From positions 1 to 51,122 of the forward strand of contig CAYOML010000007.1 in assembly GCA_964405095.1 (NCBI GenBank): DNA of 51,122 nt, read 5' to 3'. A model generated the notes under the pieces. The model was not told where the DNA came from. It made no database searches and worked only from the letters and a program-made list of their open reading frames with translations. Source of the stretch: an uncultured Candidatus Saccharibacteria bacterium. Lineage in GTDB: Bacteria > Patescibacteriota > Saccharimonadia > Saccharimonadales > EFPC-124. Position 1 is the first letter of the stretch; every line of letters begins with the position of its first letter. A program made the position numbers and the translations under genes. This document shows, piece after piece, positions 1 through 46,691 of this stretch.

Positions 1-55
1 AGGACACTAGGTTTTCATCCTGGCAACCCGGGTTCGACTCCCGGTGGGGTCACCA
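1..55 (+). tRNA. 3' portion of tRNA-Glu (anticodon TTC) with encoded CCA; anticodon arm, 4-nt variable loop, T-arm (CCGGG/TTCGACT/CCCGG), acceptor 3' strand + A + CCA
   Basis: T-loop GTTCGACTCC consensus and a CCA end are visible. The anticodon stem CTAGG/CCTGG has one G-U pair. The anticodon loop is TTTTCAT, so the anticodon is TTC. The 5' half lies outside the window. Confidence 0.7.
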
Positions 56-4095: not shown

Positions 4096-6459
4096 TTATC
4101 TTCCCAACTTTGTCTCTAGATTATTGATATCAATTGTTGTCTTTACTACTGTGTCTGGTGCAAGCGAAACACTGTCGATGCCGGCTTCAACCAAAAAGCG
4201 CGCGAATTCGGGGTAGTCTGAAGGTGCCTGACCACAGAGGCCGATCTTGACGTGTTTTTGTTTGGCAACCTTAATCACGAGGCGGATTAGGGCTTTTACG
4301 GCCTCGTTATTTTCGTCATAAACGTGGGCAACGGTGTGGTTGTCTCTGTCGACTCCGAGTGTAAGCTGTGTTAAGTCGTTGGAGCCGATAGAAAAGCCAT
4401 CGAACAGTTCAGCAAACTGCTCGGCCAAAATGACATTGGAGGGGATTTCTATCATCACATAGGCTTCAAACCCGTTATCCCCGCGCTTTAGGCCGTTCTT
4501 TTCCATGATGTCGAGCACTTTTTTGGCTTCGGTCAGATCTCGGCAAAATGGGACCATGGCTTTAATGTTTGTAATGCCCATGTCGTCCCGGGCCTTTTTG
4601 AAGGCTTTACATTCTAGTTCAAAGGCTGGCCGATATTCTGGAGAATAATAGCGGCTTGCGCCCCGCCAGCCAATCATCGGATTATTCTCGGCCGGCTCAA
4701 ATTGCTTGCCGCCTATTAGGCCGGCGTATTCGTTGGTCTTAAAATCACTAAATCTTATGATGACGTCGTTAGGGTAAAATGCCGCACCTAAAATAGCTAT
4801 GCCTTCGGTCAGCTTGTCGATGAAATACTGGGCTTTGTTGGTGTAGCCTGCGGTAAGGCGGTTAATAACCTCGCGCGTTGCTTTATCTTTAACTTCGTCA
4901 AACCTAAGCAGAGCAAGCGGGTGGATTTTGATATGCGAGTCTATTATAAATTCCTCGCGGGCCAGCCCAACACCGTCGTTTGGGATCATCGAATATTGGA
5001 AGGCGTGGTCGGGGGAACCAATGTTCATCATAATTTTGGTCTTTGGCCGCTCAAGATTTTCAAAACTTGTCCGGTTGACCCTAAACTTCAGTTCGCCTGC
5101 ATATACAAAACCTTCATCTCCCTCGGCGCAGCTAACTGTTATGGGCGACTTATTAGCAATCTTGGCTGTTCCGTTACCTGTACCCACTACACAAGGAATG
5201 CCCAACTCACGCGACACAATTGCCGCGTGGCAGGTGCGCCCGCCTTTGTCGGTCACGATGGCGCTGGCTTGCTTCATGATTGGTACCCAGTCGGGGTCGG
5301 TCATTTCGGTTACTAATACGTCACCTGTAGTAAATGAACTAATATCCTTGAGGTCCATAATTTTGCTGGCTTTGCCGGCACCAATTTTATTACCAACGCT
5401 CGTACCTTTGGTAAGCAGATCGCCCTTTTCTGTCAGCTCGTATTCTTCGACGATATTTAGATTCTTGCGTGATTGCACGGTTTCGCCGCGGGCTTGCACT
5501 ATGTAAAGCTTGCCATCGTCTTGGTCGAGTGCCCATTCGATGTCCATTGGGTGGCCATAGTGGTTTTCGATCTCGATTGCCCAGCGGGCTAAGGTGGTGA
5601 CTTGTTGGTCAGTGATCGAAAAACGTTCTTGGTCCTTTTTAGAGACGGCGATGTTTTTGGTCCGACTGCCAGCAATTGGAATCATCTTCATTTTTTTAGC
5701 GCCAACTTTTCTTTTAAGGATGGCCAGCGTTGGTTTAAAGACAGTAAATTCGTCGGGGCTCACCCGGCCTTGCACAATATTCTCGCCCAAGCCGTAAATA
5801 GAAGTCACCACAACGACATTACGGAAGCCTGTTTCGGTATCGATGGTAAACATAACACCAGCTGCTTCTGAACGCACAGCCACCATTTGCTGAATGCCAA
5901 CCGAAAGCGCCACCTTCATGTGTGCGAACTTGTTTTCGACCCGGTAAACTATTGCCCGGTCGGTAAATAGCGAAGCAATGCAGGCTTTAGTAGCCAGCAG
6001 TACATCTTTTTCGCCCTTTACGTTTAGGTAAGTTTCTTGTTGGCCAGCGAACGAGGCGTTAGGTAAGTCTTCGGCAGTGGCCGATGAGCGCACGGCCACC
6101 ACAAGGTTGCTCTGGCCGCAAACTTGGCTTAACTCGCGGTAGCCCTTAAGAATTTCTTCTTCGAAATCGGCTGGTAACTTGGCTTTAACAATTGTTTCGC
6201 GGATTTTGGCGCCGCGTTTTGCAAGTTCTTTAACGTTGGTTACATCCAGGTTGTCTAGTAATTGTTCGATTTGGGCTTGCAAGCCGGTTTGTTTAAGAAA
6301 ATAAAAGTAGCTGTCGGATGTTGTGGCAAAACCGTTCGGCAAGTTTACACCTTTTGGTGCTAGGTGTTTGACCATTTCGCCCAGCGAGGCGTTTTTACCG
6401 CCAACTTGGGGAATGTCAGTAAGGGCGATTTCTTTAAAAAACTTTATGTATCTGTACAT
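4096..6459 (-). CDS. ppsA: Phosphoenolpyruvate synthase (pyruvate, water dikinase)
   Basis: The N-terminus MYRYIKFFKEIALTDIPQVGGKNASLGEM is diagnostic. Phosphohistidine (CHAAIVSRELGIPCVVG) and PEP-utilising domains are present. Confidence 0.92.
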   Translation of the reverse strand: MYRYIKFFKEIALTDIPQVGGKNASLGEMVKHLAPKGVNLPNGFATTSDSYFYFLKQTGLQAQIEQLLDNLDVTNVKELAKRGAKIRETIVKAKLPADFEEEILKGYRELSQVCGQSNLVVAVRSSATAEDLPNASFAGQQETYLNVKGEKDVLLATKACIASLFTDRAIVYRVENKFAHMKVALSVGIQQMVAVRSEAAGVMFTIDTETGFRNVVVVTSIYGLGENIVQGRVSPDEFTVFKPTLAILKRKVGAKKMKMIPIAGSRTKNIAVSKKDQERFSITDQQVTTLARWAIEIENHYGHPMDIEWALDQDDGKLYIVQARGETVQSRKNLNIVEEYELTEKGDLLTKGTSVGNKIGAGKASKIMDLKDISSFTTGDVLVTEMTDPDWVPIMKQASAIVTDKGGRTCHAAIVSRELGIPCVVGTGNGTAKIANKSPITVSCAEGDEGFVYAGELKFRVNRTSFENLERPKTKIMMNIGSPDHAFQYSMIPNDGVGLAREEFIIDSHIKIHPLALLRFDEVKDKATREVINRLTAGYTNKAQYFIDKLTEGIAILGAAFYPNDVIIRFSDFKTNEYAGLIGGKQFEPAENNPMIGWRGASRYYSPEYRPAFELECKAFKKARDDMGITNIKAMVPFCRDLTEAKKVLDIMEKNGLKRGDNGFEAYVMIEIPSNVILAEQFAELFDGFSIGSNDLTQLTLGVDRDNHTVAHVYDENNEAVKALIRLVIKVAKQKHVKIGLCGQAPSDYPEFARFLVEAGIDSVSLAPDTVVKTTIDINNLETKLGR

Positions 6460-6531: not shown

Positions 6532-7149
6532 ATGGACAAGATTAGTAAAATATCGGCTTGGCTTGGTGCGGGTTCAATAAATATCTTTGGCCCACCATTT
6601 GCCGGCAAAGACACCCAGGGCAAGATGTTGGCCGATTTATTGGGCGGGGTGCTGATAGGCGGCGGTGATATTCTGCGCCACCATCACGACCCAGAAAAAA
6701 TTAAAGCAATAATGTCTGAGGGTGGGCTTATACCCAGCGATTTTTATTTGCATTTGGTGCTGCCTTATTTATCTCAGCCAAAGTTTAAAGATAAGCCGCT
6801 AGTACTTGATTCGGTGGGGCGTTTACCGGAAGAGGAGCCGGTTGTACTGCAGGCCACGACTGCTTCTGGCCACCCACTTAAGGCTGTTGTTTTGTTGAAG
6901 CTATCCGAGGAAGAAATATGGCGGCGATTTGATGAAGCCAAAATCGAACACGACCGCGATGGGCGCAGTGATGACCGGCGTGAAGTTCTAAAAACCCGGC
7001 TAAATAAATTCCGTGATAAAACCATGCCGGTTATAGAATTCTATCGTGATAAAGGTTTGCTTATAGAGGTTGATGGTGCCAAATCTCGCGAGGCAGTCGA
7101 GGACGAGATTTTAGAAAGTTTGGTTGCCTGCGCTATGTCTCCCCGCTAG
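6532..7149 (+). CDS. Adenylate kinase-family nucleoside monophosphate kinase
   Basis: P-loop variant IFGPPFAGKDTQ and overall AK-like layout. A TATAAT box lies 7 nt upstream of the ATG, suggesting a leaderless mRNA. Confidence 0.65.
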   Translation: MDKISKISAWLGAGSINIFGPPFAGKDTQGKMLADLLGGVLIGGGDILRHHHDPEKIKAIMSEGGLIPSDFYLHLVLPYLSQPKFKDKPLVLDSVGRLPEEEPVVLQATTASGHPLKAVVLLKLSEEEIWRRFDEAKIEHDRDGRSDDRREVLKTRLNKFRDKTMPVIEFYRDKGLLIEVDGAKSREAVEDEILESLVACAMSPR

Positions 7150-7192
7150 GCCGCACTGCATGTGTCACAGTGCGGCCGTCGCGGTTGTCGGG

Positions 7193-7525
7193 TCAGGCGG
7201 CGTTTGCCGGTGTTCTGGCGTCGATGAGCCTGACGAGGTGCATGATGCCCGAGATTTCGACCATGCCACACTCTTCGTGCAACCACCGCCCAAAAGCGGT
7301 GATGGCACCGTCTCGCCTGGGGTTGGTCGCGGACAGTGCAAGCACTGCGTCGCGCCTGGCCGTCAGCTGAGTGTGAAATTCTCGAAGCTCAGTTGCTGTG
7401 ACCTCGCCCAGCTCCTCGCTCGCGGTCCGAAAGAACACATCCAGATCGAAGGTGTTGGTCGGGTCTTCCGCGAACTTAATTGCTAAGCTCGCCAGAATCC
7501 GTTTGACAGTTTTGCCGTTAGCCAT
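7193..7525 (-). CDS. Hypothetical small protein in a high-GC patch (start moved to the Met with a GAAGGGA RBS)
   Basis: The ORF is in a ~60% GC segment. The internal ATG at 7525 has a good RBS. Confidence 0.35.
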   Translation of the reverse strand: MANGKTVKRILASLAIKFAEDPTNTFDLDVFFRTASEELGEVTATELREFHTQLTARRDAVLALSATNPRRDGAITAFGRWLHEECGMVEISGIMHLVRLIDARTPANAA

Positions 7526-33278: not shown

Positions 33279-33578
33279 TAAATAAGTTGTACACAGTCAT
33301 AAATTGACATAACCGTCAATAGTCGGTAAAATACATACATACACTATATGGAGCGCGGAGTTTAGGCTTAAAGCGGCTGTAAAGTGTTCTTCCTTGTAAT
33401 GTCGTAAGAGATGTCTGAACACGTTATAACTAATATATAAAGGTCGACACATCTCGGTTCCAGTGGTGGGGAAGAAAGACATACTAGGAAGTATTGGTTA
33501 CAGTGGTAACACTGCAATCTGGAGACGTATATTCGCACTAATTCGCTTCAGGGCCATGCCCTGGATAGGCCTGCAAGT

Positions 33579-41918: not shown

Positions 41919-42344
41919 TCATACCAAAAGCGGCTCAATATTGTCGCCTACGGGCGTGGGGATATGGTTTTTAAAATCGTAGATTAGTTTTATAAGCAGC
42001 GGATCCTCGAACGCATCTTTTTGAGCGAGCTGTAAAACAGAATCAGGCGAAAACGTTGCAAGCTCAAGCCCGGAATCCTGCAACTGCACTGGTTCGATCT
42101 GGCAGCCGAAAACAAATCGCACTGTTTGTTTGGGCACGTCGCCGTGGGTGACGATCTTAAAAAGGCGCAAAACTTGCGCCCGATAACCCGTTTCTACTAG
42201 CACACATCGCCGAACACATAAGATTGGTCCTTCGCTGCCCTGCAAAACCCTATCTGGCAAACGCCATTTAGACTGTGGGCCCTCACGCACTAAAACTACC
42301 CCGTTTTCCCAGTGAACAATCGCGCTGCAGTGGACATGTGCCAT
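41919..42344 (-). CDS. NUDIX-like small protein (degenerate Nudix box), divergent from the island's first gene
   Basis: Degenerate G..E.......RR..ETGY Nudix-box-like segment. 141 aa. Confidence 0.45.
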   Translation of the reverse strand: MAHVHCSAIVHWENGVVLVREGPQSKWRLPDRVLQGSEGPILCVRRCVLVETGYRAQVLRLFKIVTHGDVPKQTVRFVFGCQIEPVQLQDSGLELATFSPDSVLQLAQKDAFEDPLLIKLIYDFKNHIPTPVGDNIEPLLV

Positions 42345-42371
42345 ACCATTTCCTCGCTACTTGAGCACTAT

Positions 42372-42392
42372 TATGCACAAGGCATGTGCATA
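42372..42392. promoter_or_regulatory. Perfect inverted repeat TATGCACA-N5-TGTGCATA in the divergent promoter region (candidate RHH operator); TTGACT -35-like box 27 nt downstream
   Basis: An 8-bp perfect inverted repeat with a 5-nt spacer lies between the NUDIX-like gene (-) and the first Rcl-RHH gene (+). Confidence 0.45.
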
Positions 42393-42453
42393 TGCGCAAG
42401 GGTTACACAACATTTTTATTGACTTACATCTGTTGGGGTGGTTTGATTAGGGT

Positions 42454-43032
42454 ATGATTGTGAGTTTCTCGGCGAGTTTAAGAACAATTGAACAAGATAT
42501 TGATATATACAAAAAGATTCTTTCTATATTACGCACTTTGGGGTGTTCAATTGCAAACGACTGGGTTGAATCAGCACGGCTTTACCAACTCAATAAATCT
42601 CGTGATAAGCCTGAGCAGGATTGGAGACACTTCTGTGAACATTCAAAGGCAGGTATCGAAAGCTCGGATTTAGCAATAATTGAAGGATCGGGCTTCGCTA
42701 GTTTTGGTGTTGGATACGAAGCGGGCTATGCAATAAAAATTAAAAAGCCGACTTTGATTTTAATAAAAAAAGAGGACATAAAAGTGTCATACGCTGCTGG
42801 TCTTGGCAATGATCTGGTAACTGTTGCCAGCTACACAAACGAGAATCTCGGGCGTATTATCAAGACCTTTGTAAAAGACAATTCAATTCGAAGCAAGGAT
42901 ATGCGTTTTAACTTCGTAATTGACAGACAGATCTACAATCATTTACGTAAAAAATCTTTTCGTACAGGTAAGACAAAGGCGGAAATTGTTCGCGATATAG
43001 TTTTGGAAGATATACACGGAAAAGGTATATAA
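42454..43032 (+). CDS. Paralog 1: Rcl/DNPH1-like (nucleoside 2-deoxyribosyltransferase superfamily) N-domain fused to a C-terminal ribbon-helix-helix (Arc/MetJ-type) domain; catalytic Glu conserved (GVGYEAG)
   Basis: SDLAIIEGSGFASFGVGYEAGYAIKIKKPTLILI compares with DNPH1 ADVVVAEVTQPSLGVGYELGRAVAFNKRILCL. The C-terminus KDMRFNFVIDRQIYNHLRKKSFRTGKTKAEIVRDIVLEDI compares with Arc MPQFNLRWPREVLDLVRKVAEENGRSVNSEIYQRVMESF. Confidence 0.6.
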   Translation: MIVSFSASLRTIEQDIDIYKKILSILRTLGCSIANDWVESARLYQLNKSRDKPEQDWRHFCEHSKAGIESSDLAIIEGSGFASFGVGYEAGYAIKIKKPTLILIKKEDIKVSYAAGLGNDLVTVASYTNENLGRIIKTFVKDNSIRSKDMRFNFVIDRQIYNHLRKKSFRTGKTKAEIVRDIVLEDIHGKGI

Positions 43033-43034
43033 AT

Positions 43035-43604
43035 ATGGTTATTCATCTTACGTGCTCGAGGGAATGTGTTGCTGAAAATATCGGCACACTTAGAAAAATA
43101 ATAAGCATCATTTACGACTTTGGTCATGTAGTTGCGAGGGATTGGATGGAGCCACACTACAGAAATATCCTTAAGAGCAAAAGCTCGGGTACCCCAGTCG
43201 AGGATATTTTCAGGTTGAACAATGAGGCTATAGATCGGGCCGATCTGGTGATAGTTGAGGGGTCGTACAAAAGCTTTGGCAACGGGTTCCAAGCTGCTAC
43301 CGCACTACAAAAAAAGAAGCCACTACTACTTCTTATAAGGCGAGGAAGTGATGAAAGTACTATATCGCGTAGTGCGGTTGACCCCTATCTTATTCGTAAA
43401 GAGTACGATGATACGTCACTCGACAAAATTGTTAAGGATTTCATACAAAATAATACAATGAGAACAAAAGATATGCGCTTCAATTTTGTGGCAGACAGGG
43501 CTACTAGTAGTCATCTAAGGTGGTTATCGTATAAATCTGGCAAAACAAAAGCAGAGGTTTTAAGGAATCTCATATTAGAGGATATAAGAAAATCGGATGA
43601 TTGA
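43035..43604 (+). CDS. Paralog 2: Rcl/DNPH1-like + RHH fusion; Glu position replaced by Gln (GNGFQAA)
   Basis: It starts 3 nt after the paralog-1 stop, so the two are probably an operon. It has the same architecture and the same C-terminal KDMRFNFVADR...GKTKAEVLRNLILEDI. Confidence 0.6.
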   Translation: MVIHLTCSRECVAENIGTLRKIISIIYDFGHVVARDWMEPHYRNILKSKSSGTPVEDIFRLNNEAIDRADLVIVEGSYKSFGNGFQAATALQKKKPLLLLIRRGSDESTISRSAVDPYLIRKEYDDTSLDKIVKDFIQNNTMRTKDMRFNFVADRATSSHLRWLSYKSGKTKAEVLRNLILEDIRKSDD

Positions 43605-43862
43605 GCAAGCAATATCTGTGATCTGTGGCTATACCCCTCCTAGCAAGTAAATGGCGATCGATTTGCTATACTAGCCTTAAAGAGGCAAAAAGATGGGAAA
43701 AAATTACCAGATTCATACGCGATGTTTGGCTTACGATACTACTCCTGTTGATCATGTAGTGTCGGGAACGGAAGATAATCTATGTTTCAAGCCTGTGTTG
43801 GCTTAATCTGTTTGATTGTCTGTTTGAGGAGGGTGGAGATTTAATATAGGTTCTCTTATTCA

Positions 43863-43892
43863 ATGACATGCACCTTGCCTTAGCAGTATAAT
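43863..43892 (+). promoter_or_regulatory. Near-consensus sigma70-type promoter: -35 ATGACA, 18-bp spacer, -10 TATAAT
   Basis: Read directly from the sequence. It lies 14 nt upstream of the GTG at 43906 and 74 nt upstream of the ATG at 43966. Confidence 0.5.
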
Positions 43893-43965
43893 GTAGACAG
43901 GGGGCGTGTGTGAACAACAAAAAGGGCTTTCTTTCAGGTATAAACTGATATATTATTCTAGGTCT

Positions 43966-45399
43966 ATGGGTAAGGTTGCGGTAAATTCTGGTCATATAAA
44001 TATACTTCTAGTGGGAGGAGTTGGTCTTTGGTCGGAGAAAAATCATATTCCCAATCTTGCTGCGTTGAAACAGAGAGGTTATAAAGTGAAATTGGTGGCG
44101 GTTTGTGACATACAAGACCCAGCCCAACATAGCGATCGCAAGAATCTTCAGAAGATGATGAGAGAGGATATGTCCAAGTGGATAAGTGTTTCTAATAATA
44201 ACCCAACGCCACTCAGTCAGCTGGATAAACTTCTCGAGACGGAACCACTTGATCTCGTAATAATTGCCTGTAATCCTGTTGCTCACTTTGGTTATGCTAT
44301 GTGGGCAGTAAAGAATAATCTACATGTTATATGTGACAAACCCTTACTGGACGTCGCTAACTCTGCTAGTGACGTTAACGCTGCAAGAAGAATATGGAGT
44401 AACTATGAGAAACTAGTTGAGGCATATCTTACGGCGAAAAAGGAAACCCCTCATCTAAATTTCAATCTGGTCCTAAGGCGCAGGAGCCTACCCGCGTTTA
44501 CACTCGTTGCTGATCGTCTAAGATACGTAGCTGAGCAATATGGTGCAGGAATCAACCATATAAATATTCTGAATCATGGCGGAATATATAAATACCCTGA
44601 GGAAATGGAAGGTTATGGAGCGCATGATTTCTCCTCAGGTGTTGGTTCCCTCTCACATTCCAGTTACCATTATCTTGATCTCTTCAACTGGTATCTCAAA
44701 AGTGCTAAAGGCCCAGTTAAATATATTGTTCCTCGTCTCACAAATATACTCCGCATTGGAGATTATTTAGATACAGAGGCGTACAAACACATTAAAGCTG
44801 TCAATACACATACTAAAAGTAGTATGAAAAAACTGCCAAAAGAAGTACTCGCATGTGAACTCGACGTAGCATTTAACATTCTTTTTTACGATAAGTCGAT
44901 GCGTCCTGTCGGAGATGCGAACTTCATCGCTAACCACCTTAGCTTCAGCCCTCGCACCAGAGATTTTGAGGCCGGTATAACGGAACCGGCACAATTTGTC
45001 GGAGGCGGAAGAATCTCGCATCTTTACGTGGACATCCATCAATCGGGCCTACAAAATCTACAATTAATAAAAAACGATGTTACCTTTGAAGGCTCCAATA
45101 TATTAGTACAAACGCGCACGCACCCTGGTATTGAAGCGTTAAGCAGTCATGAGACGATCTATTTTGACGATGCATACCGCAATACTGACTATAGTATGGA
45201 GGAGATTCTTAGGTCAGTGGTTGATGCAATTTTGGCCAGACAGTCGGTGATTTCGACAATGATTCCTAGTCTCTTAGACGATAAGGCCAACGCGCAGTTA
45301 TTCGCTAAATTCTATGAAATTGTCGCGCTTGACTATAGTGAGAAGCAAAATAATAAATCGAAAGTATATAAAGCGCAGGATCTAATAGAACTAACCTAA
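43966..45399 (+). CDS. Gfo/Idh/MocA-family NAD(P)-dependent oxidoreductase-like protein (alternative GTG start at 43906)
   Basis: N-terminal Rossmann ILLVGGVGLWSEKNHIPNL...VKLVAVCD...LDLVIIACNPVAHFGYAMWAVKNNLHVICDKPL matches the GxGxxG...D...(E/D)KP consensus of the family. Confidence 0.55.
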   Translation: MGKVAVNSGHINILLVGGVGLWSEKNHIPNLAALKQRGYKVKLVAVCDIQDPAQHSDRKNLQKMMREDMSKWISVSNNNPTPLSQLDKLLETEPLDLVIIACNPVAHFGYAMWAVKNNLHVICDKPLLDVANSASDVNAARRIWSNYEKLVEAYLTAKKETPHLNFNLVLRRRSLPAFTLVADRLRYVAEQYGAGINHINILNHGGIYKYPEEMEGYGAHDFSSGVGSLSHSSYHYLDLFNWYLKSAKGPVKYIVPRLTNILRIGDYLDTEAYKHIKAVNTHTKSSMKKLPKEVLACELDVAFNILFYDKSMRPVGDANFIANHLSFSPRTRDFEAGITEPAQFVGGGRISHLYVDIHQSGLQNLQLIKNDVTFEGSNILVQTRTHPGIEALSSHETIYFDDAYRNTDYSMEEILRSVVDAILARQSVISTMIPSLLDDKANAQLFAKFYEIVALDYSEKQNNKSKVYKAQDLIELT

Positions 45400-45454
45400 G
45401 TTTTGATGCGCTATATGTACTAAACGTTCTGCTGTGTTGTACTATTAGCTCATA

Positions 45455-46039
45455 ATGAAAATCCACTTTGCTGCATCTAAACATAACATTCAAGAAAACA
45501 TTAAGTATTACCGTAGGATTATAAAAGCCATCCACAGTAGTGGTCATACTCTTACGCACGATTGGGTAGATCCGTCATATGAGCTATCGGTAGGAAGCGG
45601 TGATTATTCTGAGTTGGATTGGAACTCTATTTATCGGGAGAACATGGAGGCTCTAGCCCGAGCTGATATAGTGATTGTCGATAACACCGTGAGCAATTTC
45701 GCTGTTGGATATATGGTGGCGATTGGGCTGCAGCATAAAAAACCGACATTGATTCTTTTTCGAAACAAAGCCATCGAGGGCACAATGGCATCTGGGATGG
45801 ATGAGAGTCTGGTTACATTTAAAGAATACGACGACAAGAATCTGGAGAGCATAGTCGAGGCCTTCATAGAAGGGAACAAGATTGACACCAAAGACATGCG
45901 CTTCAACTTCTTCATAGATCGTCCAATCTACAACTACCTACGTTGGGCTGCATACAAAACCGGCAAAACCAAGGCCGAAATTCTCCGCGATCTAGTTTCT
46001 AAAGAAATCGATAAAGCTAACGACGTCAATCAGCTTTAG
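45455..46039 (+). CDS. Paralog 3: Rcl/DNPH1-like + RHH fusion; Glu position replaced by Met (AVGYMVA); best overall match to DNPH1 N-terminal block
   Basis: IHFAASKHNIQENIKYYRRIIKAIHSSGHTLTHDWV compares with DNPH1 LYFCGSIRGGREDRTLYERIVSRLRRFGTVLTEHV. ADIVIVDNTVSNFAVGYMVAIGLQHKKPTLILFRN compares with ADVVVAEVTQPSLGVGYELGRAVAFNKRILCLFRP. The C-terminal RHH is KDMRFNFFIDRPIYNYLRWAAYKTGKTKAEILRDLV. Confidence 0.6.
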   Translation: MKIHFAASKHNIQENIKYYRRIIKAIHSSGHTLTHDWVDPSYELSVGSGDYSELDWNSIYRENMEALARADIVIVDNTVSNFAVGYMVAIGLQHKKPTLILFRNKAIEGTMASGMDESLVTFKEYDDKNLESIVEAFIEGNKIDTKDMRFNFFIDRPIYNYLRWAAYKTGKTKAEILRDLVSKEIDKANDVNQL

Positions 46040-46691
46040 TTCGCCTCCACCCCAGTTTTTGCAGGAGTTTTCTCCTGCTTTTTTCGTTCCGCAAAATATG
46101 GTAAGCAGGTGAAGCTAGGCTAATTACTATTACAGCCAAAATTACTGGCATCACAACCGTCTCTACGCTAATTCCGTGTGCTTTTAACCATGCACCGCTG
46201 TAGTAGCCCAGATATGTTACCAGCGCCACCCACGCAGCTCCACCAACAAGGTTGTACAGCAAAAACCGCCTGTAATTCATGTTGCCAATTCCGGCTACTA
46301 CTGGCGCGAAGGTACGCACCACGGGAATAAACCGCGCTAGTACTATGGTTATCGGTCCGTATTTCTCGTAAAATTTTTCGGCGCGTTCTAGGTTGGATTG
46401 GTGAAATAATACCGAATCGGGTCTGCGGAAAAGGCGCCTGCCAAAACGCCTGCCAAATTCATAACCCACTAATACTCCGCTCACTGCAGCGATGAATAAA
46501 ATAAACACTAATAGGTGAATGTTGATCTGTAAAATACCTTGTTGTGCCAGGATGCCAGCGGCAAATAACAGTGTGTCGCCTGGGAAGAAAAACCCAACTA
46601 ATAGGCCAGATTCGGCAAAAATAATGCCTGCGACGCCAAGCACACCAATGGCACCTATAACTTCGTTTAGTTCTAACCCAAATAGCATCAA
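46026..46691 (-). CDS. DedA/SNARE-associated family membrane protein
   Basis: DedA motif VGFFFPGDTLLFAAGILA and multiple TM helices. Confidence 0.8.
   Translation of the reverse strand: MMLFGLELNEVIGAIGVLGVAGIIFAESGLLVGFFFPGDTLLFAAGILAQQGILQINIHLLVFILFIAAVSGVLVGYEFGRRFGRRLFRRPDSVLFHQSNLERAEKFYEKYGPITIVLARFIPVVRTFAPVVAGIGNMNYRRFLLYNLVGGAAWVALVTYLGYYSGAWLKAHGISVETVVMPVILAVIVISLASPAYHILRNEKSRRKLLQKLGWRRTKAD
46061..46084 (+). terminator. Rho-independent terminator GCAGGAG-TTTT-CTCCTGC + TTTTTT after paralog 3 (lies inside the annotated 3' end of the convergent DedA ORF)
   Basis: A 7-bp stem is followed by a T6 run. Confidence 0.55.

Follow-up and report, generated by a model that had tools for sequence, protein, structure and literature searches.

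The window, a stretch of 51,122 nucleotides from a Candidatus Saccharibacteria genome, carries three related genes on the forward strand. Paralog 1 (P1, 42454-43032, 192 amino acids), paralog 2 (P2, 43035-43604, 189 amino acids) and paralog 3 (P3, 45455-46039, 194 amino acids) are pairwise 35-43% identical and have the same layout, an N-terminal DNPH1/Rcl-like domain and a C-terminal RHH domain. In P1 these domains extend over about 42454-42879 and 42892-43029; the RHH domains of P2 and P3 are located at about 43464-43601 and 45887-46036, respectively. The original prediction had stated that the paralogs differ exactly at the column of the catalytic nucleophile. Reading frames, motifs and codons were all confirmed: Glu89 in P1 (GVGYEAGYA; GAA, 42718-42720), Gln86 in P2 (GNGFQAATA; CAA, 43290-43292) and Met87 in P3 (AVGYMVAIG; ATG, 45713-45715). 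NCBI annotates P2 with 152 amino acids, whereas homologues align from residue 1 of the 189 amino acid reading frame. P2 starts 2 nt after the stop codon of P1, and tandem paralogs that abut or overlap were also present at five other loci. Both observations fit co-expression. A GFO/IDH/MocA-type oxidoreductase is encoded between P2 and P3 (43906-45399, forward strand, 497 amino acid reading frame; PF01408, E=4e-10; its true start is possibly the ATG at 43966). On the reverse strand a NUDIX hydrolase gene (41919-42344, PF00293), a conserved neighbour in related loci, diverges from P1. A terminator-like hairpin followed by a T-run was seen just past the P3 stop codon (46061-46078, forward strand).

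Does the variable column correspond to the catalytic nucleophile of DNPH1/Rcl, as predicted? In a phmmer search of P1 against rat Rcl and human DNPH1 (E=1e-4), E89 fell on the Glu of GVGYELG, i.e. the position of Rcl E93 and DNPH1 E104. A profile of P3 relatives matched Rcl/DNPH1 with E=8e-13, and its consensus Gln was positioned on the nucleophile Glu; a profile of the Glu-type relatives matched Rcl with E=2.6e-13. The Rcl/DNPH1 profile matches spanned the whole 140 amino acid domain (E about 1e-12 to 1e-13). In a sequence-based alignment by hmmalign, rat Rcl Y13, D69 and E93 were assigned to positions 4, 64 and 89 of the family model. The column is that of the nucleophile. The domain adopts the flavodoxin-like fold of NDTs, in which the nucleotide pocket lies at the C-terminal strand ends, and a S-x-G-V-G-Y-[E] loop is common to the family and DNPH1/Rcl. 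With 30.5 bits P1 surpassed the PF05014 gathering cut-off of 28.8, and in this it resembles the MilB/BlsM-type (hydroxymethyl)CMP N-glycosidases and nucleoside 2-deoxyribosyltransferases. P3 remained below the cut-off (25.7 bits), and P2 did not match the PF05014 model. The MilB/BlsM/NDT enzymes are stand-alone proteins in which the Glu is essential, whereas RHH-fused family members mostly have Gln or a hydrophobic residue at this position. DNPH1 also lacks the C-terminal RHH domain found in all three paralogs.

The other active-site residues have changed as well. The nucleophile (DNPH1 E104, Rcl E93, NDT E98) is present in P1 and missing in P2 and P3. At the position of the general acid (DNPH1 D80, Rcl D69) hmmalign placed S64 of P1, N62 of P2 and N63 of P3, and at that of the triad Tyr (DNPH1 Y24, Rcl Y13) S4, H4 and H4, respectively. 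Both the Asp and the Tyr are absent from all three paralogs, and of the DNPH1 triad Y24/D80/E104 P1 retains Glu alone. Equivalents of R30 and of the phosphate-binding serines S98 and S128', the latter from the partner subunit, are kept in P1 (S83 and S112 for the serines). P2 has S80 for S98 and Thr for S128'; P3 has Asn and Thr at these positions and, in addition, Ala for G100. Neither the R30 nor the S128' position is conserved in the P2 and P3 subfamilies.

These residues bear on the proposal that P1 works as a dNMP N-glycosidase or a deoxyribosyltransferase, with P2 and/or P3 as inactive hetero-oligomer partners or high-affinity substrate traps. The retained Glu89, R30, S98 and S128' equivalents, the tight spacing of P1 and P2 and the abutting or overlapping paralogs elsewhere are in line with it. 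In DNPH1 a complete active site requires the partner subunit (PMC10603095). The laboratory variants E104Q and D80N of DNPH1 are inactive and bind substrate, and for human DNPH1 E104Q the KD is about 1.6-3.5 µM (PMC10603095, PMC12751057). The natural Gln and Asn pair equals these two inactivating mutations. However, Ser replaces both the Tyr and the Asp in P1, which makes its catalytic activity doubtful, and among 37 Glu-type relatives the D80 position is never Asp (Ala in 27). The claim of one catalytically competent enzyme was not supported. Nor is P2 a single-substitution E-to-Q trap. Because the general-acid Asp, the triad Tyr, R30 and S128' have changed too, the Gln and Met forms are, by their residues, diverged pseudo-enzymes rather than simple substrate traps, and several further pocket differences would preclude identical binding of a common ligand. 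The proposal also leaves the conserved RHH domain of all three proteins unexplained. On balance we consider it rather unlikely.

Are the residue changes peculiar to this locus? The family is undescribed and was found almost exclusively in Saccharibacteria; P3 alone yielded 651 matches, and a profile search 919 clusters (50% identity, E<=1e-10). In public sources its members are named hypothetical protein or, in some, 'nucleoside 2-deoxyribosyltransferase'. P1, P2 and P3 fall into three old subfamilies. Judging from this placement they are neither recent copies of one enzyme nor the products of a local duplication with subsequent inactivation. Family-wide, Gln is the commonest residue of the nucleophile column and Glu is in the minority; Met, Leu, Phe, Tyr, Ile, His, Arg and Gly also occur. 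Glu is characteristic of a single subfamily, the P1 type (35/37), which clusters with stand-alone proteins of the Glu type, about 140 amino acids long. P2-type proteins have Gln in 11 of 14, and a set of relatives 49-53% identical to P2 (P0309-P0317) carries it without exception. In the P3 subfamily, the largest one, with dedA and rplY (L25) as usual neighbours, Gln was counted in 155 of 195 sequences, Met in 20, Leu in 6 and Phe in 3. The Met sequences, 20 of the 121 in an alignment of P3 with 118 of its homologues, P1 and P2, came from independent metagenomes. The loss of the nucleophile in P2 and P3, as originally predicted, is a state conserved throughout the family and not an error. The D80 position of the P3 subfamily is Asn or Ser, and the Y24 position is His in 168 of 195. 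Glu-type relatives have Tyr at the triad position in 23 of 37, P1 and its closest relatives excepted. The stand-alone relatives without RHH are all Glu-type, mostly with Tyr at position 4, which indicates that fusion to RHH accompanies loss of Glu in most cases. The clustering of the P1 subfamily with these proteins would suit a P1 enzyme. Yet at most loci that were fetched the members are Gln-type or otherwise non-Glu and no Glu-type gene is present in the same locus. This makes an obligatory pair of active and inactive subunits unlikely as a general rule.

The broad range of residues tolerated in the nucleophile column, together with the vanished R30 and S128' contacts, could mean that the N-terminal domain is just a ligand-free oligomerisation or scaffold module, and that the proteins are constitutive RHH repressors or nucleoid-associated proteins. 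Against this, the column does not drift but is fixed within subfamilies. The pocket residues H4, D36-W37, D71, G87 and Y/F88, the last two part of the G-x-G-Y/F loop, are conserved across subfamilies, as is the Gln. Furthermore, a single loop of the Met clade shows concerted change at three positions (S98 to N, G100 to A, Gln to Met). On this pattern of conservation the former active-site pocket is still under selection, and a pure scaffold appears quite improbable.

The C-terminal domain had been predicted to be RHH, and this was borne out with relatives of the paralogs. Of 50 C-terminal segments, 17 matched the Pfam model RHH_1 (best 7.7e-6) and 9 RHH_3; others matched RepB, ParG, NikA, TraY and SeqA_N. 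Taken singly, the segments of P1, P2 and P3 did not reach the Pfam RHH thresholds, and a profile of the domain gave no significant match to PDB sequences. Alignment of the C-terminal 45 amino acids with CopG by hhalign gave E=3e-5 with strand, helix and helix fully in register. R151 and N153 align with Q9 and N11 of Arc, and both are invariant in a 49-sequence family alignment. In AF2 monomer models the two RHH helices are visible and the predicted strand is of low confidence; this is expected since RHH is an obligate dimer, and it does not confirm RHH. The strand KDMRFNF is identical in P1, P2 and P3. The strand-helix-helix pattern is that of the CopG/Arc/MetJ repressors. These classical repressors are small stand-alone proteins or carry RHH at the N-terminus, whereas here it is C-terminal and its DNA binding is putative.

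A candidate operator is situated in the divergent promoter region of the NUDIX gene and P1 (42372-42398). Its core is a perfect 21-bp palindrome, TATGCACA-AGGCA-TGTGCATA (42372-42392), upstream of P1 and the sole match within the window. A third half-site, TATGCGCA at 42391-42398, overlaps it. Three of the window's eight TATRYRCA sites are in the candidate operator, and the same half-site spacing of 13 nt was found at loci of four other species. ATATACA was present in 16 of 64 spacers upstream of family genes compared with 8 of 250 control spacers (p=3e-7), a value to be read with the motif having been found post hoc and the related loci being non-independent samples. ATGCRC is present in all three promoter regions of the island. 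The best sigma-70-like promoter match of its region, ATGACA-18-TATAAT (11/12; 43863-43892, forward strand), is upstream of the oxidoreductase and overlaps an ATGCAC half-site at 43868.

The synteny of the island is conserved, UvrA-NUDIX-...-DedA-L25 with one to five tandem paralogs inside. The neighbouring genes vary and mostly encode enzymes of nucleotide or sugar metabolism: across loci SAM methyltransferases, NUDIX, HAD, a PfkB kinase, a thymidylate-kinase-like protein, GTP cyclohydrolase I, PRTase and the GFO oxidoreductase. The last adjoins P3-type genes in either orientation at six other loci and is a variable 'cargo' enzyme of the island. Two genomic contexts recur, and both adjoin repair genes, uvrA in one, ruvA and ruvB on either side in the other. 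Such neighbours could instead point to a DNA-directed role. Members would then be enzymes whose NDT-like domain, brought to DNA by RHH, excises or exchanges bases in conjunction with the neighbouring repair genes. The fold family does catalyse cleavage of N-glycosidic bonds (PMC10603095). However, most members lack any carboxylate nucleophile, and synteny with uvrA or ruvAB may be no more than a consequence of gene order being conserved in small genomes. The pocket of the DNPH1/NDT fold accommodates free mononucleotides, and we know of no DNA-glycosylase activity in this family. We regard DNA-directed enzymes as very improbable.

The GC content of 0.40-0.43 at 42-46 kb, compared with about 0.50 in the flanks, and an island gene content that differs between genomes raise the question of a horizontally acquired toxin-antitoxin, anti-phage defence or mobile-element module, the more so as RHH domains are frequent in antitoxins. 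Yet the P3-type gene keeps its chromosomal position across many species, and most members have a catalytically dead domain where the 'toxin' would be. PADLOC defence models gave no match at E<=0.1 and a PHROG search none that was meaningful. In the list of open reading frames no integrase, repeats or tRNA were seen at the island borders, and the only other hint at a toxin-antitoxin system was a weak RelB-like match (E=0.12). Such a module is hardly to be expected here.

Of the original prediction, the loss of the nucleophile in P2 and P3 and the RHH domain are supported. The intact P1 enzyme and the simple substrate trap are not, and an obligatory pair is unlikely to be general. As two paralogs and most relatives lack the catalytic Glu, sensing regulators are more probable than enzymes. 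We consider it moderately likely that P1, P2 and P3 are paralogous ligand-responsive RHH transcription regulators. The old active-site pocket would bind a small-molecule ligand that is probably either a (deoxy)nucleoside monophosphate or a sugar-phosphate or nucleobase compound related to it, and pocket occupancy would alter binding of the RHH dimer to operators of the local gene island. As the Gln and Met forms no longer have the R30 and S128' contacts, the ligand may be no nucleotide at all. P2 and P3, in which a covalent deoxyribosyl-enzyme intermediate would be impossible, would be pure sensors. P1, from the subfamily closest to real enzymes, might be a slow 'trigger enzyme' or a sensor with a retained Glu. 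With an identical DNA-reading strand the three proteins probably read the same half-site; they may form mixed dimers or compete, and different ligands could thereby act on one set of promoters.

Saccharibacteria rely on host-derived nucleotides. Possibly, a dNMP-hydrolase fold gave rise to multi-paralog sensor-repressors. Changes in the old active site, the nucleophile position included, would have tuned each of them to a different nucleotide-like ligand. Mixed RHH dimers, conceivable because all paralogs have one DNA-reading strand, would combine several nucleotide signals on common operators, and a variable island of salvage and modification enzymes would be under their control. The Glu-type member could sense its ligand via a covalent deoxyribosyl-enzyme intermediate. 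In all its parts together this scheme is unlikely and is put forward tentatively.

Regulators built from enzyme folds have precedents. B. subtilis PurR joins an inactive PRTase-like domain to a DNA-binding domain, PutA combines RHH with an enzyme, and NikR RHH with a ligand domain. By analogy, the effector-binding module of a DNA-binding protein is a metabolic-enzyme fold, whether active or dead, and PutA and NikR use RHH as the paralogs would. In contrast, the sensor fold of the paralogs is DNPH1/NDT-like and not homologous to these sensor domains, RHH is C-terminal instead of N-terminal, and multiple tandem paralogs share an identical DNA-reading strand.

The findings affect several hundred proteins from public Saccharibacteria (CPR/TM7) genomes and metagenomes. 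Because most members lack the catalytic Glu, the enzyme name probably misdescribes most of those fused to RHH. The proposal lends itself to testing: the proteins are small, and candidates are available for the operator and, as a short list, for the ligand. If these proteins are indeed ligand-sensing regulators of the RHH type, they would newly exemplify how an enzyme fold is turned into a sensor, and nature would have arrived at the E-to-Q and D-to-N substitutions with which biochemists inactivate DNPH1. They would then count among the limited number of candidate metabolic regulators in very small, host-dependent genomes.

Three co-directional ORFs encode the paralogs P1 (42454-43032, 192 aa), P2 (43035-43604, 189 aa) and P3 (45455-46039, 194 aa). 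Pairwise identities are 35-43%, and in each protein a ~140-aa N-terminal domain is joined to a C-terminal segment with the conserved pattern KDMRFNF..DR....LR....GKTKAE..R. P1 and P2 are separated by an intergenic gap of 2 nt. In the NCBI annotation P2 has 152 aa (protein handle P0308). The 189-aa form, which begins 2 nt past the P1 stop codon, matches its homologues from residue 1 in the alignment; the public call probably is N-terminally truncated and loses the first strand of the domain.

The original prediction stated that the paralogs carry Glu, Gln and Met, respectively, at the position of the catalytic nucleophile. The residues were confirmed by the loop motifs, GVGYE in P1, GNGFQ in P2 and AVGYM in P3, and by the codons GAA at 42718, CAA at 43290 and ATG at 45713. 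That this is the nucleophile column was borne out by several independent alignments to Rcl/DNPH1. P1 aligned to rat Rcl and human DNPH1 (phmmer, E=1e-4), and profiles of the P3 relatives and of the Glu-type relatives matched Rcl at E=8e-13 and E=2.6e-13, respectively. With hmmalign to the family model, Rcl Y13, D69 and E93 were placed at family positions 4, 64 and 89. An NCBIfam search yielded sub-threshold matches only, to YtoQ and RelB-like models.

The catalytic triad of DNPH1 consists of Y24, D80 and E104; S98 and, from the partner subunit, S128' contact the phosphate, R30 and H56 the base, and E55 activates water (PMC10603095). A DNPH1 E104Q mutant has no activity and still binds substrate (PMC10603095, PMC12751057), with a KD of ~1.6-3.5 µM (PMC12751057). 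One of the PDB matches, 8QHQ, is this engineered DNPH1 E104Q, and its aligned loop, GVGYQLG, reads like the natural family consensus. We mapped the DNPH1 residues onto the paralogs by hmmalign. At the E104 position P1 has E89, P2 Q86 and P3 M87. The Y24 position is occupied by S4 in P1 and by H4 in P2 and P3, the D80 position by S64, N62 and N63 in P1, P2 and P3, respectively. R30 corresponds to R10 in P1, E10 in P2 and H10 in P3, S98 to S83, S80 and N81, and S128' to S112 in P1 and to Thr in the other two. Of the 37 members of the Glu-type subfamily, 23 have Tyr at the Y24 position, 32 Arg at R30 and 31 Ser at S128'; at D80, Ala predominates (27/37) and Asp is absent from all 37. The P3-type subfamily has His at the Y24 position (168/195) and Asn (105) or Ser (44) at D80, and its R30 and S128' positions are not conserved. 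A D-W motif (D36-W37 in P1) is kept across the whole family and aligns with the E55/H56 element of DNPH1, with a one-residue disagreement in register between the alignments from the P3-relative and Glu-type profiles.

Judged from this mapping, canonical double-displacement catalysis by P2 and P3 is very unlikely, and with high confidence we consider both devoid of canonical N-glycosidase activity. P2 had been proposed to be a substrate trap generated by a Glu-to-Gln exchange. The pocket mapping contradicts this because P2 and P3 have diverged well past such a single change. P1 retains the ligand contacts and, of the three triad residues, only the nucleophile; its catalytic activity is therefore uncertain.

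The C-terminal segments of 50 diverse family members were compared with Pfam. RHH_1 was matched by 17/50 (best 7.7e-6), RHH_3 by 9/50 and RepB-RCR_reg by 6/50; the remaining matches were ParG, NikA-like, TraY and SeqA_N, all of them families with a ribbon-helix-helix (RHH) fold. A profile of the segment aligned with CopG across the full strand-helix-helix (hhalign, E=3e-5). A search of the C-terminal-domain profile against PDB sequences gave nothing significant, the RHH proteins SeqA-N, AvtR and VapB26 scoring at E>0.2. R151, F152, N153 and F154 are invariant in a 49-sequence family alignment, and the family Arg and Asn align with the DNA-contact residues Q9 and N11 of Arc. By these sequence comparisons the C-terminal domain is an RHH domain. 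Because the strand KDMRFNF is identical among P1, P2 and P3 and the contact residues align, a common half-site is predicted, and mixed dimers of the paralogs or competition for the half-site are plausible.

How widespread is this architecture? Homology searches retrieved 47 relatives of P1, 651 of P3 and, at E<=1e-20, 21 of P2, and a profile search returned 919 clusters (50% identity, E<=1e-10). Nearly all relatives have 185-200 aa and the same two domains. A scan of GTDB species genomes yielded 48 loci, all but four of them named Saccharibacteria or Saccharimonadales; the exceptions were one Patescibacteria, two 'uncultured bacterium' and one MAG labelled Magnetospirillaceae. In a pooled sample of ~308 sequences the nucleophile column of the RHH-fused members contained Gln in ~175 clearly fused proteins, a figure that rises when variant strands are included. 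The other residues were Glu (36), Met (~22), Leu (~11), Phe (5) and Tyr (3), and sporadically Ile, Val, His, Arg, Ser and Thr. Members of ~140 aa without the C-terminal domain were mostly Glu-type (16 Glu vs 7 Gln). In a neighbour-joining tree, which was rooted on Rcl and is crude, serving for subfamily separation and not for the ancestral residue, P1, P2 and P3 sit in three separate old subfamilies. Every member of the Glu clade (21 RHH-fused, 14 stand-alone) has Glu. Gln characterizes the P2 clade and predominates in the large P3 clade, where Met emerges at more than one place. Since the residue is conserved inside each subfamily, the pattern indicates selection, not drift.

These data bear on the alternatives. 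It had been suggested that an active and an inactive paralog form a heteromer. Such a heteromer may exist for the P1-P2 pair; as a family-wide rule it is excluded because most of the fetched loci contain family members but no Glu-type gene. The proteins might also be DNA-directed enzymes, which is less likely because the nucleophile is missing in most members, P2 and P3 among them. That the N-terminal domain is nothing but a scaffold is likewise less likely in view of the conserved pocket.

In the window, P1 is preceded by a divergent NUDIX gene with uvrA on its far side; P3 is followed by dedA and the L25 gene. Between P2 and P3 lies a GFO/IDH/MocA-type oxidoreductase gene (GFO, 43906-45399, plus strand, 497 aa). 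Its model match is confined to the N-terminal Rossmann part (residues 32-155); the other ~340 residues had no Pfam match, and a sequence search found no PDB relative. GC content is 0.40-0.43 over 42-46 kb vs ~0.50 in the flanks, and the low-GC stretch (42000-46000) matches the segment whose gene content varies from genome to genome. The P2-oxidoreductase spacer (43605-43905) is unusually long, ~300 nt, and contains a 37-aa ORF (43693-43806, plus strand; MGKNYQIHTRCLAYDTTPVDHVVSGTEDNLCFKPVLA) preceded by a Shine-Dalgarno-like AAGAGG, and a weak hairpin (43789-43804). Rfam detected no RNA family inside the island. Elsewhere in the window a lysM-TM7 RNA (RF03005), a TM7-specific cis-regulatory motif, scored above gathering at 33387-33524 (plus strand, 72.8 bits). 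It speaks for a Saccharibacteria origin and, along with the organism names attached to some homologues, puts the window in Candidatus Saccharimonadales. A tRNA gene at 1-52 (plus strand) is clipped by the contig start to its 3' part.

Two contexts recur in related genomes, UvrA-(NUDIX)-[island]-P3-type-DedA-L25 and RuvA-x-family member-RuvB. At the latter position (around 7000 in loci L012, L016, L021, L023, L025, L027, L035 and L044) a Gln-type gene is co-directional with ruvB. A defence or toxin-antitoxin module is less likely given this stable synteny and the lack of model matches: PADLOC found none, and PHROGs gave weak matches (E >= 0.005) of no value. Islands contain one to five family genes, frequently abutting or overlapping, with arrays in L005, L054, L019 and L032. 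The interspersed enzymes vary by genome: SAM methyltransferases (17/132 neighbours), NUDIX proteins (10/132), HAD phosphatases, a PfkB kinase, a thymidylate-kinase-like protein, GTP cyclohydrolase I, a Ppx/GppA-NDT fusion, PRTase_3 and GFO. The fusion (L043, 5660-6916, minus strand, 419 aa) joins an N-terminal Ppx/GppA phosphatase domain to a weak C-terminal Nuc_deoxyrib_tr match and immediately precedes a Gln-type family gene. A minus-strand gene of ~160-190 aa, in L005 at 6720-7232, recurs within these islands in L004, L007, L008, L011, L013, L021, L024, L025 and L052. It has an NDT-like loop (DEESEVDTTLALLIGYAMLNEKPIVL) with Ala in the nucleophile's place, escaped detection by the family HMM and may represent another pseudo-NDT, more diverged and lacking the RHH.

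GFO adjoins a Met-type P3-type gene in the window, L003, L006, L054 and L055, and a Gln-type one in L011 and L056, in either orientation. Because it stays adjacent through inversions, a functional link is suggested, such as that of a regulator and its target. We rejected the notion that Met at the nucleophile position tracks a GFO neighbour: GFO stood by a Met-type gene in 5/6 contexts and also by Gln-type genes, so that the clade, and not the residue, is linked to the enzyme. In the Met-type locus L054 the P3-type gene and dedA are separated by an inserted 2-hydroxyacid dehydrogenase gene (5579-6406, plus strand), a further case of variable redox-enzyme cargo.

The NUDIX/P1 spacer contains a perfect palindrome at 42372-42392, TATGCACA-N5-TGTGCATA, overlapped by a third half-site, TATGCGCA, at 42391-42398. 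The palindrome is the sole match in 51 kb with up to 3 mismatches allowed, and the 27 bp from 42372 to 42398 contain three of the eight TATRYRCA sites in the window. Half-sites at the equivalent place and with equal 13-nt spacing are present in other species (L005, L004, L001 and L006). Of 64 spacers upstream of family genes, 16 contain the 7-mer ATATACA, compared with 8 of 250 other promoter-side spacers (Fisher p=3e-7). The core ATGCRC is found in the promoter regions of the island, all three of them, with 5 sites in a total of 525 bp vs 0.45 expected; one of these sites overlaps the most promoter-like sequence, in front of the oxidoreductase gene. All these tests are post hoc, and the related loci are not independent samples. 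Given these qualifications, the element at 42372-42398 is graded a good candidate for an operator.

Taken together, the best-supported reading, which we hold with moderate confidence, is that the family consists of ligand-sensing RHH regulators with a DNPH1-like scaffold. In this reading P2 and P3 would act as sensors without catalysis, and P1 would be a residual 'trigger enzyme' or, alternatively, a sensor which retained its Glu. Our literature searches found no paper on a fusion of an NDT/DNPH1-like domain with RHH or on this family in Saccharibacteria, and nothing relevant on Saccharibacteria and deoxyribosyltransferases. That an enzyme fold can serve as the sensory part of a DNA-binding protein is already known; new here are the fold used, the architecture and the arrangement in multiple paralogs.
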